Shown here piece by piece: positions 32,437 through 39,390 of a DNA stretch of 64,000 bases (position 1 is the stretch's first letter; each line of letters opens with the position of its first letter). The notes under the pieces are model-generated. The model made no database searches. It was not told where the DNA came from and was given only the letters and a program-made list of their open reading frames with translations. Made by a program: the position numbers and the translations under genes. The stretch lies in contig JAZORF010000002.1 in the NCBI GenBank assembly GCA_045656545.1, positions 11,072 through 75,071 of the forward strand. The letters run 5' to 3'. Source of the DNA: Acutalibacteraceae bacterium (GTDB taxonomy: Bacteria; Bacillota; Clostridia; Oscillospirales; Acutalibacteraceae).

Positions 32437-32487
32437 AACAGCAACAACTTTCCAAATAAAGTATAGCATAAACTTTAAGTCTTTTCA

Positions 32488-32643
32488 ATGAAAAATGAAG
32501 CATTGGCTTCGCCAATATGAAGCGCTTGCTAACGCTCGTATGAAGCGAAGCGCACATTTTTTCGTTATTTATGTTGCGAAGCAACACTTCATAGCCGAAG
32601 GCGACTTCATTCTTCATTAGCACCGTAAGGTGCGCTTCATTGC
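32488..32643 (-). repeat. Periodic hexamer / mini-hairpin inverted-repeat element, copy R1 (candidate structured ncRNA)
   Basis: On the + strand, ATGAAG at 32495, 32517, 32540 (plus ATGAA at 32488), then CTTCAT at 32587, 32605, 32612, 32635. Spacers form small hairpins. Homologous to 39121-39290 when read on the minus strand, i.e. downstream of tRNA-fMet. Confidence 0.6.
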
Positions 32644-32647
32644 AACC

Positions 32648-32684
32648 AAAAAAATAGCAGCCGACAAAGTCGACTGCATTTTTT
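32648..32684 (-). terminator. Terminator of tRNA-fMet (bidirectional)
   Basis: Stem GCAGCCGAC/GTCGACTGC (one mismatch, a G-U pair on the transcribed minus strand) flanked by A7 and T7. Confidence 0.75.
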
Positions 32685-32761
<77 letters not shown>

Positions 32762-38813: not shown

Positions 38814-38989
38814 AGAGGTGTCGCCAAGCGGTAAGGCACGGGATTTTGATTCCCGCATCCGTAGGTTCGGCGTAGCAGTTGAGTTGCAAAGCAAATCAAC
38901 TGTGAAGTCTCGAGCAAGGCAAGTTTTTTCGGACACCGCTTAGAGCGGTCGAAAAAACGCCTGCGCAGAGTACCCTGCCACCTCTGCCA
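38814..38989 (+). pseudogene. tRNA-Gln (UUG) copy interrupted in the T-loop by a 104-nt structured insert
   Basis: 38814-38869 is identical to nt 1-56 of the intact copy at 39008, and 38974-38989 is identical to its last 16 nt. In between, 104 nt replace the three T-loop bases AAT. Confidence 0.6.
38870..38973 (+). other. Structured insert within the tRNA-Gln T-loop
   Basis: Closing helix GGCG (38869-38872) / CGCC (38958-38961). Hairpin CAGTTGA (38876-38882) / TCAACTG (38896-38902). Long hairpin TTTTTTCG-gac-ACCGC-ttaga-GCGGT-CGAAAAAA (38924-38957). Confidence 0.55.
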
Positions 38990-39007
38990 TTTGAATTTAA
39001 TAAATAT

Positions 39008-39082
39008 AGAGGTGTCGCCAAGCGGTAAGGCACGGGATTTTGATTCCCGCATCCGTAGGTTCGAATCCTGCCACCTCTGCCA
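39008..39082 (+). tRNA. tRNA-Gln (UUG), intact copy
   Basis: AGAGGTGTCGCCAAGCGGTAAGGCACGGGATTTTGATTCCCGCATCCGTAGGTTCGAATCCTGCCACCTCTGCCA. Cloverleaf folds by eye; anticodon TTG. Confidence 0.9.
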
Positions 39083-39083
39083 G

Positions 39084-39118
39084 AAAAAACTCCTTGAGAA
39101 ATTCTCAAGGAGTTTTTT
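39084..39118 (+). terminator. Intrinsic terminator of the tRNA operon
   Basis: A6-CTCCTTGAGAA-a-TTCTCAAGGAG-T6. Confidence 0.88.
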
Positions 39119-39120
39119 CA

Positions 39121-39290
39121 ATGATGTTTGCCTTACGGCAAATGATGTCGCTTGCGCTAATGATGACGGCTTTGTCTAATGATGTCGCTTCGCTAATGTT
39201 TTGTGGAAAATATCGCATCATTTTCGGCGTAGCCCAATACATCATATTTGCGAATCAAATGCATCATATCGCCGTAATGCGATGCATCAT
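39121..39290 (+). repeat. Periodic hexamer / mini-hairpin inverted-repeat element, copy R2 (candidate structured ncRNA)
   Basis: ATGATG at 39121, 39142, 39160, 39179, then CATCAT at 39216, 39240, 39262, 39285. Spacers form hairpins (39128-39141, 39246-39260, 39268-39283). Confidence 0.65.
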
Positions 39291-39347
39291 TTAAATATTT
39301 TTAGAATTGTTCATCTTTTCAAAAAATAAGATTAGTTACTCCTTCGC

Positions 39348-39390
39348 AACTAACAACCCTAACTGCTGAGTTAAGGTTGTTAGTTTTTTA
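39348..39390 (+). terminator. Strong orphan intrinsic terminator downstream of R2
   Basis: 17-bp stem AACTAACAACCCTAACT/AGTTAAGGTTGTTAGTT (one mismatch) with a GCTG loop, followed by T-rich TTTTTA. No ORF precedes it on the + strand. Confidence 0.8.

Follow-up and report, generated by a model that had tools for sequence, protein, structure and literature searches.

The 64,000-nucleotide (nt) window analysed here, a stretch of contig JAZORF010000002.1 from an Acutalibacteraceae bacterium, contains a tRNA operon followed by a small intergenic repeat element, R2 (39119-39294, plus strand), which is a divergent, decaying copy of the Gut-1 RNA motif (RF01706). The order around it is spoIIAA-spoIIAB-sigF (genes named from the translations of their open reading frames (ORFs) alone), tRNA Met-Glu-His-(split Gln)-Gln, a terminator, R2, a second terminator and nfnAB. 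R2 consists of four ATGATG tags (39121, 39142, 39160 and 39179) followed by four CATCAT tags (39216, 39240, 39262 and 39285), with mini-hairpins in between. All eight positions proposed by a first-pass annotation of this DNA are borne out, and its three spacer hairpins (TTGCC-TTAC-GGCAA, ATTTG-CGAAT-CAAAT and ATCGC-CGTAAT-GCGAT) are all present. A generic scan of the whole window for hexamers occurring at least three times and then at least three times as reverse complements, over at most 260 nt, retrieved only R2 and its paralogue R1, which has ATGAAG/CTTCAT tags and lies behind a tRNA-fMet; 50 shuffled sequences gave a mean of 0.1.

The architecture had initially been recognised as no described RNA family, repetitive extragenic palindrome (REP) or bacterial interspersed mosaic element (BIME), or attC site. 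The near-identical palindromes of REP/BIME and the core sites of attC are indeed absent, but the unit array is that of Gut-1, and relatives of R2 pass the Rfam gathering score for this family (50 bits). In the comparison locus L055b (comparison loci have L numbers and proteins P numbers), the Gut-1 model scores 65.9 bits on the left arm and 28 bits on the right arm, on the other strand, and 15 further matches in 11 loci also exceed the threshold. The left arms of R2 (15.7 bits, E = 3.5) and R1 (22.6 bits, E = 0.025) fall below it, and the R1-type loci L450 and L457 are likewise unreported at the gathering score. Relatives with the canonical GTGATAT tag score above the threshold; R2 and R1, which do not, are therefore divergent variants. 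Their layout agrees with that of Gut-1 members, as do the initial CAATGA and the loop of the first hairpin, CCTTACGG. Gut-1 is defined by at least three consecutive short hairpins with a conserved 7-nt linker RUGAWAU and a 5' CAAUGA (consensus CAAUGAAAU-hairpin-GUGAAAU-hairpin-GUGAAAU-hairpin-GUGAAAU); in R2, four units come after CAATGATG, and the units of R1 come after CAATGAAG. Both are thus strings of short hairpins with conserved linkers and a CAAUGA start, from gut Clostridia like the motif itself, but the linker is GUGAWAU in Gut-1, ATGATG in R2 and ATGAAG in R1.

Genomic context agrees with this assignment. The threshold-passing loci L436 and L446 have a tRNA terminator before the array and a gene of the PF05635/TIGR02436 family after it, whereas L443 and L445, which also pass, directly adjoin a PF05635 gene in a TrmO context without a tRNA. 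R1 has the tRNA arrangement of L436 and L446; R2 has the tRNA terminator and no gene. Gut-1 was described by Weinberg et al. 2010 (PMC2864571) from human-gut sequences and in no sequenced organism, without mention of a palindromic layout, a tRNA link or a protein link, and the flanked alignment of that study already displays a tRNA, a terminator, GUGAUAU units and then AUAUCAC units. In the literature searched, no other paper mentions the motif. Its published model covers three hairpins of one arm only, whereas most elements described here are two-armed.

The unit of these arrays is a 6-7-nt tag (RTGAnnT; ATGATG in R2) plus an almost purely Watson-Crick mini-hairpin of 4-7 base pairs (bp) closed by C-G. 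Three to ten units make an arm, and most elements comprise two inverted arms round a central hairpin. The hairpins are the conserved feature of the element. Among 141 curated spacers from 26 elements (722 pairs), stems average 5.1 bp, as compared with 2.7 bp in shuffled spacers. Of the pairs, 713 are Watson-Crick, three G.T and three A.C, and the closing pair is C-G in 87% of spacers. Stems are kept while loops vary freely between copies (L055a/b and the R1 orthologues). On the tag strand, T..C loops (TTC, TAC, TGC, TTAC, TTGC, TTTC) outnumber G..A loops by 78 to 7 (p = 3e-16), and this polarity is equal in both arms. The arms are therefore inverted copies of one asymmetric unit, which accounts for the complementarity of their hexamers. 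It also follows that the opposite strand has C-GNA-G or C-GNRA-G loops, an extraordinarily stable DNA mini-hairpin motif (PMC13037366, PMC3201870).

We surveyed 80 loci around NfnA homologues in gut metagenome-assembled genomes of Acutalibacteraceae/Oscillospirales; for the window NfnA itself, no exact-protein record was found. About 12 elements of R2 build were recovered, with the tags ATGAAT, ATGATAT, ATGAAAT, GTGAAGT, GTGATAT and ATGTAAT. Scanning metagenomes with three GTGATAT copies returned mostly unrelated repeats, about 12 loci with real arrays remaining after hairpin filtering. Degenerate tag-array patterns were also sought in viral contigs. Among the matches listed, only L207 and L240 look genuine, the rest being chance or tandem-repeat matches, and this search therefore provides no evidence of a phage link. 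These two contigs (IMG/VR, classed viral) carry Gut-1-type arrays just after genes that resemble, by eye, those of a major capsid protein and a portal protein. A minority of arrays have the opposite arm order, with the AnnTCAY arm first (L078, 2870-3060; L038, 7290-7500; L464, 1500-1560); the L464 array lies downstream of the cassette at that locus and shares 36 of 37 nt with that of L078 (ATCCATTGCGAAGCAATGG-CATATCATCA).

Read on the minus strand, that of its tRNA, R1 is collinear with R2, and the stem changes between the two are compensated (TTTGCC/GGCAAA versus CGCACC/GGTGC round a common TTAC loop; ATTTGC/GCAAAT versus ATTGGC/GCCAAT). The proposal of a homologous copy with compensatory changes downstream of tRNA-fMet thus stands, and the tRNA ahead of R1 is indeed of the initiator type as read from its sequence, in which C1 faces A72 and the anticodon stem contains GGG/CCC. 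R1 is followed by a promoter and a PF05635/TIGR02436 gene. Since the N-terminal 55 amino acids (aa) and the C-terminal tail of a 117-aa protein (P0157) are both kept, this gene has suffered an internal deletion. An intact R1 locus is present in [Eubacterium] siraeum-type genomes and reads promoter, tRNA-fMet, terminator, ATGAAG/CTTCAT element, TTGAAA-16-TATCAT promoter, 117-aa gene and terminator. In one contig of this type (L461, approximately 560-640), the tRNA-fMet ahead of the R1-type cassette has given way to unrelated sequence that extends as far as ...CCATATAAAAGC, close to the terminator on its upstream side, which suggests, from this comparison, an insertion or rearrangement at the tRNA-fMet 3' end.

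The association with PF05635 extends well beyond R1. A tblastn search of the window and an initial set of comparison loci retrieved only four homologues (window, L002, L337 and L368), all four beside an element; the L337 protein is a full TIGR02436 member (115 bits). Ten proteins were examined in their loci: eight belong to the GTGATAT class (P0007, P0046, P0077, P0069, P0085, P0080, P0119 and P0061) and two to the ATGAAG class (P0157 and P0201). Together with L368 and the window R1, they represent seven distinct gene contexts: Peptidase_M18 with tRNA-Arg, TrmO, GerA with tRNA-Gln, UDG with tRNA-Gln, lipase with tRNA-Gly-Arg-His, L368 (flank unassigned) and tRNA-fMet. A two-armed element lies directly upstream of the gene in 7/7. 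Tag class tracks protein subfamily, ATGAAG accompanying R1-type and GTGATAT accompanying L337-type proteins (36-50% identical). A search with PADLOC gave no defence-system match for the four-helix-bundle protein.

Two loci delimit the cassette. L449 (684-1248) and L464 (484-1048) have 565 nt in common at 91% identity, comprising element, promoter and PF05635 gene. The common stretch runs from the T-run of the terminator of a tRNA-Gln and a tRNA-His, respectively, to 15 nt before the gene stop codon, and the flanks are unrelated; it therefore looks like a discrete cassette. No target duplication was identified at these junctions. A different small unannotated ORF follows the cassette gene in each. 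In L443 the last tag is separated from the ATG by 30 nt that include a ribosome-binding site and no predicted promoter, so that transcription through the element is required there. In the TrmO loci L443, L444, L445, L463 and L465 (approximately 1250-1650 in L443), Gut-1 arrays lie on both sides of the PF05635 gene. Their unit number and order differ between samples of one locus, as in a variable-number tandem repeat, with many identical GTGATAT-TGCCCTTCGGGCA units.

The position of the elements is equally recurrent. The link of R2 to a tRNA operon, noticed in the first-pass annotation, is real and general: tRNA terminators precede elements at no fewer than ten distinct tRNA loci. The first base of the element falls at the terminator T-run or within a few bases of it (behind tRNA-Gln, fMet, Pro, Val, Arg, Leu and His), and this applies to 8 of about 13 elements in the NfnA loci. 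One-armed arrays begin 10-40 nt past the stop codon of recR, pyrG or a portal gene, each read in the direction of the array, and the two-armed L321 and L352 lie behind co-oriented HAD-hydrolase and ogt genes. Stop-to-stop ORF calls are ambiguous in these high-GC contigs, and orientation rests on RecR, PyrG, HAD hydrolase, portal protein and Ogt, read by eye. An intrinsic terminator follows the arrays of L356 and L417. The far end of the element usually abuts or overlaps the -35 box of a promoter, according to the promoter scan for R1 and L450 and to sequence reading for L038, L049, L055b, L446 and L449. Among relatives, no empty site was found for R2 or R1, because only the 98% relative L002 keeps the junction of tRNA-Gln and nfnA.

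L002 also allows the recent history of R2 to be followed. The two copies differ at 9 of 174 positions and at none of the 48 tag positions, as compared with approximately 19% in the next 52 nt and approximately 15% at nfnA third codon positions. R2 has therefore been under constraint. Nevertheless, each of the four differences in the arm stems disrupts a pair that L002 forms perfectly, giving a G.T at 39175 and mismatches at 39235, 39255 and 39278, and the TTGAAA at the element end of L002 is TTTAAA in the window. In intact relatives, this spot holds the promoter (TTGAAA-16/17-TATCAT or TATACT) that drives the PF05635 gene. We read R2 as a gene-less copy decaying in this lineage. At 39255, 39278 and 39292, a G in L002 corresponds to a T in the window, each directly 3' of AA or TT (GAA|G, GTAA|G, CATCATT|G), and two of these three changes abolish a loop-closing C-G pair.

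The strong 'orphan' terminator downstream of R2 is present as first described, with no ORF found between it and R2. It had been taken as a sign of transcription, by read-through or independently; as it can equally be read as the remnant of a lost gene cassette, it provides no evidence for R2 as an independent RNA gene. We consider that it may be what remains of such a cassette.

Features of the R1 and R2 loci in the 64-kb window.
Feature	Coordinates	Strand	Basis
PF05635/TIGR02436 (four-helix-bundle, 23S-rRNA-IVS (intervening sequence) protein) gene, internally deleted, 73 aa	32218..32436	-	Pfam E = 4.5e-9, profile positions 9-52 of 106; comparison with P0157
Sigma-70-type promoter TTGAAA-17-TATACT (with TG); -35 overlaps final R1 unit	32460..32488	-	Promoter scan; matching arrangement in L450
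R1, paralogue of R2 with ATGAAG/CTTCAT, right behind tRNA-fMet terminator	32487..32643	-	Rfam Gut-1, 22.6 bits at 32562-32642 (-)
tRNA-fMet (32685-32761) and terminator (~32645-32683)	32645..32761	-	ARAGORN; initiator type from sequence reading
tRNA-Gln(UUG), final gene of Met-Glu-His-(split Gln)-Gln operon	39008..39082	+	ARAGORN; Rfam tRNA, 62 bits
tRNA-operon intrinsic terminator, A6-stem-T6	39083..39119	+	Perfect 18+18 inverted repeat; terminator scan; R2 starts one base later
R2 left arm: 4 units of (A)ATGATG + mini-hairpin spacer; loops TTAC, TTGC, TTT, TTC	39120..39194	+	Weak Rfam Gut-1 match, 39119-39190, 15.7 bits
R2 central hairpin ATGTTTT-GTGG-AAAATAT	39195..39215	+	L002 orthologue has other sequence, hairpin kept
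R2 right arm: 4x CATCAT; plus-strand spacer loops GTA, GAA, GTAA	39216..39292	+	One stem-breaking substitution per hairpin (3 hairpins) versus perfect L002 orthologue
Decayed promoter-like stretch at R2 end: TTTAAA (TTGAAA in L002)	39289..39325	+	Sequence reading
'Orphan' intrinsic terminator, no ORF upstream	39348..39390	+	Stem 39348-39385, 17-nt arms 94% complementary, T6; -19.4 kcal/mol, z = -6.1

Some features of the R2 neighbourhood deserve separate mention. The symmetry of the tRNA-operon terminator (A6-stem-T6) makes it potentially bidirectional. A weak sigma-70-like match on the minus strand (TTGAAA-17-AATATT, 39294-39322) aims into R2 from the right, and its transcript would stop at that terminator; it has no consistent counterpart at other elements. 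Upstream, a second tRNA-Gln(UUG) copy (38814-38990, plus strand) matches the intact one exactly through GGTTCG of the T arm and is then interrupted by an insert of approximately 116 nt (38870-38985) with a strong fold containing two hairpins, one of them terminator-like; the tRNA sequence then resumes with the T stem, in its 3' half, and the acceptor. This split copy is missing from L002, and its insert had no match in Rfam or among the loci compared.

With moderate confidence, we favour the view that R2 represents a decaying, non-coding remainder, without a gene, of a small modular cassette that has a Gut-1 hairpin array, the array acting in cis once transcribed. The element begins at or near a terminator T-run, usually that of a tRNA operon, or some tens of bases past a stop codon, and intact copies have a promoter and the PF05635/TIGR02436 gene immediately downstream of it; R1, with its internally deleted gene, and R2, with only a decayed promoter and a terminator, would be degraded versions of this order. 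The array would be transcribed as a 3' trailer, by read-through or as an intercistronic part of the upstream unit, and its RNA would fold into a string of compact hairpins, two arms forming a long branched stem. Such a structure could serve as a cis barrier or processing module between a strongly expressed RNA of the host and the cassette gene, and probably also as a binding platform for the four-helix-bundle protein. Strain comparisons suggest that slippage between tags lengthens and shortens the arrays, which would keep the tags uniform within one element. We favour an RNA-level mechanism from the position of the arrays, their polarity relative to upstream transcription, the arrangement in L443 and the analogy with 23S rRNA intervening sequences.

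Several observations weigh against this view. The tRNAs are separated from R2 by a strong terminator. Hardly any G.U pairs occur on either strand, which is odd for a structure formed purely at the RNA level, and the stable GNA/GNRA loops closed by C-G belong to the strand whose sequence is not reproduced in RNA by incoming transcription. The L412 element apparently lies between divergent genes. Many elements have no PF05635 gene nearby, the apparent co-variation of tag and protein involves two lineages only, and that R2 once carried a gene is something we infer. Finally, the cassette behaviour and the variation in copy number point instead to single-stranded DNA (ssDNA).

This last point leads to a DNA-level interpretation, already among the options of the first-pass annotation, in which ssDNA hairpins would act as a recombination or mobility site of the cassette (compare attC, REP doublets forming hairpins (REPINs) and IS200/IS605 ends) or as a selfish palindromic repeat spreading and expanding by template switching, RNA being incidental. 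We consider this possible, if rather doubtful. It fits the almost exclusively Watson-Crick stems, which have no wobble excess on either strand, and the presence on one strand of C-GNA-G / C-GNRA-G loops such as those found at ssDNA origins (PMC13037366). One cassette behind different tRNA terminators, nearly identical elements in different flanks (L321, L352 and L412), polymorphic unit number between samples, and conserved stems with free loops between copies are also as expected. Yet no recombinase, transposase or integrase was seen beside any copy (among the few neighbours examined), and no target-site duplication was identified. Moreover, the strand with the stable loops serves as template for transcription of the incoming gene; it is not the one that would be expected to lie exposed on the lagging-strand template where genes are co-oriented, and array polarity follows the direction of upstream transcription.

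More speculatively, and with less confidence still, the Gut-1 array and the PF05635 gene would form an unrecognised small mobile cassette, kin of the ORF-bearing 23S rRNA intervening sequences and homing 3' of tRNA-operon terminators. Its protein would read the tags, whose class would co-vary with the protein subfamily, the hairpins would serve mobility or processing in single-stranded nucleic acid, and R1 and R2 would be successive stages of decay.

The original proposal, an autonomous structured RNA of ~170 nt folded as a ladder of four-way junctions and possibly titrating a protein, now appears improbable. Arm hexamers are exactly complementary in every two-armed element, across nine or more tag variants; R2 and R1 fold more stably than shuffled sequences (z = -3.6 and -4.3, each on the window plus strand); and a terminator follows R2. 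By contrast, arrays with one arm only, some of them Rfam-certified, have no complementary tags at all, and the variant tags of L038 and L321 are uncompensated in the opposite arm. Local hairpins outdo pairing across the arms, and partner spacers in L055b are unrelated. Minimum-free-energy folding yields no ladder for R2 or for its L002 orthologue but extended hairpins in which spacers pair across the arms, only the fold of L049 being partly ladder-like, and the ladder is thus not required. In a MAFFT alignment, the arms show register shifts; as the full-element alignment is good for the first unit alone, it does not permit a column-wise covariation test of the tag helices. In addition, the promoter scan predicts no promoter between the tRNA terminator and R2, its right arm is decaying in this genome, and right arms score far below left arms with the Gut-1 model (28 versus 66 bits).

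Also quite unlikely is a duplex DNA operator or iteron array, with tags ~18-24 bp apart bound by the PF05635 product or another protein to control the promoter at the element end: the overlap of the cassette -35 box with the last unit, a tag spacing close to two helical turns and the correspondence of tag class and protein subfamily speak for it, but a duplex operator needs no perfectly palindromic spacers of arbitrary sequence with strand-asymmetric loops, and arrays also occur in 3' untranslated positions and downstream of the gene, far from promoters.

Other candidates were considered for the array and dropped. C/D-box k-turns lack a CUGA partner here, and type III antitoxin repeats consist of identical units with a toxin gene after them. 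We also discarded parS or DnaA boxes, Chi sites and CRISPR, as well as the match of hairpin 1 with the complement of the tRNA-Gln D-loop, since an identical hairpin loop follows other tRNAs too.

Gut-1 has remained an orphan Rfam motif since 2010, its function unknown, and PF05635/TIGR02436, still described as functionally uncharacterised, is a very large family, one query alone having over 7,000 relatives in gut data. What is new here is that the Gut-1 motif makes up one half of an element that is palindromic, adjoins terminators, varies in copy number and is coupled to a PF05635 gene. Their physical coupling gives each a concrete, testable partner. It also provides a named host well represented in public data, as the [Eubacterium] siraeum-type P0157 occurs on at least 1,000 contigs; its locus runs tRNA-fMet, element, intact gene. 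For annotation, the elements explain a class of 150-400-nt 'empty' gaps behind tRNA operons in Oscillospirales.

Comparison with known systems brings out what is peculiar to these elements. Miniature inverted-repeat transposable elements have terminal inverted repeats and a target-site duplication; the termini here are inverted (TTTCAATGATG / CATCATTTAAA), and neither an empty site nor, at the L449/L464 junctions, a duplication was found. Like integron attC cassettes, the elements combine a short ORF with a structure-conserved, imperfect palindrome that has 7-nt complementary end motifs, and the cassette is found at different places. However, their ends are CAATGAW/WTCATTG instead of the attC core sites RYYYAAC/GTTRRRY, the palindrome is internally periodic, and the target is a terminator T-run; no integron integrase or cassette array was noticed beside the loci read, where no systematic search was made. 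With REP, BIME and REPIN sequences they share the extragenic position at the 3' ends of transcription units, a conserved short tag by each hairpin, inverted pairs capable of forming long hairpins, and clustered mosaics with variable unit number. REPs are present as hundreds of near-identical palindromes per genome, whereas our 141 hairpins have mostly different stems and only the tags in common, and no REP-associated tyrosine transposase (RAYT) gene is known here (64-kb window, its ORFs only partly scanned).

The mini-hairpins d(GC-GNA-GC) and d(GC-GNNA-GC) of ssDNA origins and ssi signals (PMC13037366, PMC3201870) obey the same rule of loop and closing pair as almost all of our units do on one strand (C-GAA-G, C-GTA-G, C-GCA-G and C-GTAA-G). 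They occur singly at phage or plasmid priming sites, whereas ours are arrayed in intergenic regions of chromosomes, and nothing points to a role in replication. As to 23S rRNA intervening sequences, the insert studied here lies after tRNA terminators or protein genes instead of in the 23S helices (25 or 45) from which RNase III excises such sequences, the window containing no rRNA. Its palindrome precedes the ORF and does not enclose it, arrays on both sides being restricted to the TrmO loci, and it is built of repeated tag-and-hairpin units. Within the window, PF05635 coding sequence accompanies R1, where it is internally deleted, and R2 has no ORF. In both systems, nevertheless, a PF05635 (23S_rRNA_IVP) gene is coupled to an extended hairpin inserted in or beside the transcription unit of a stable RNA.

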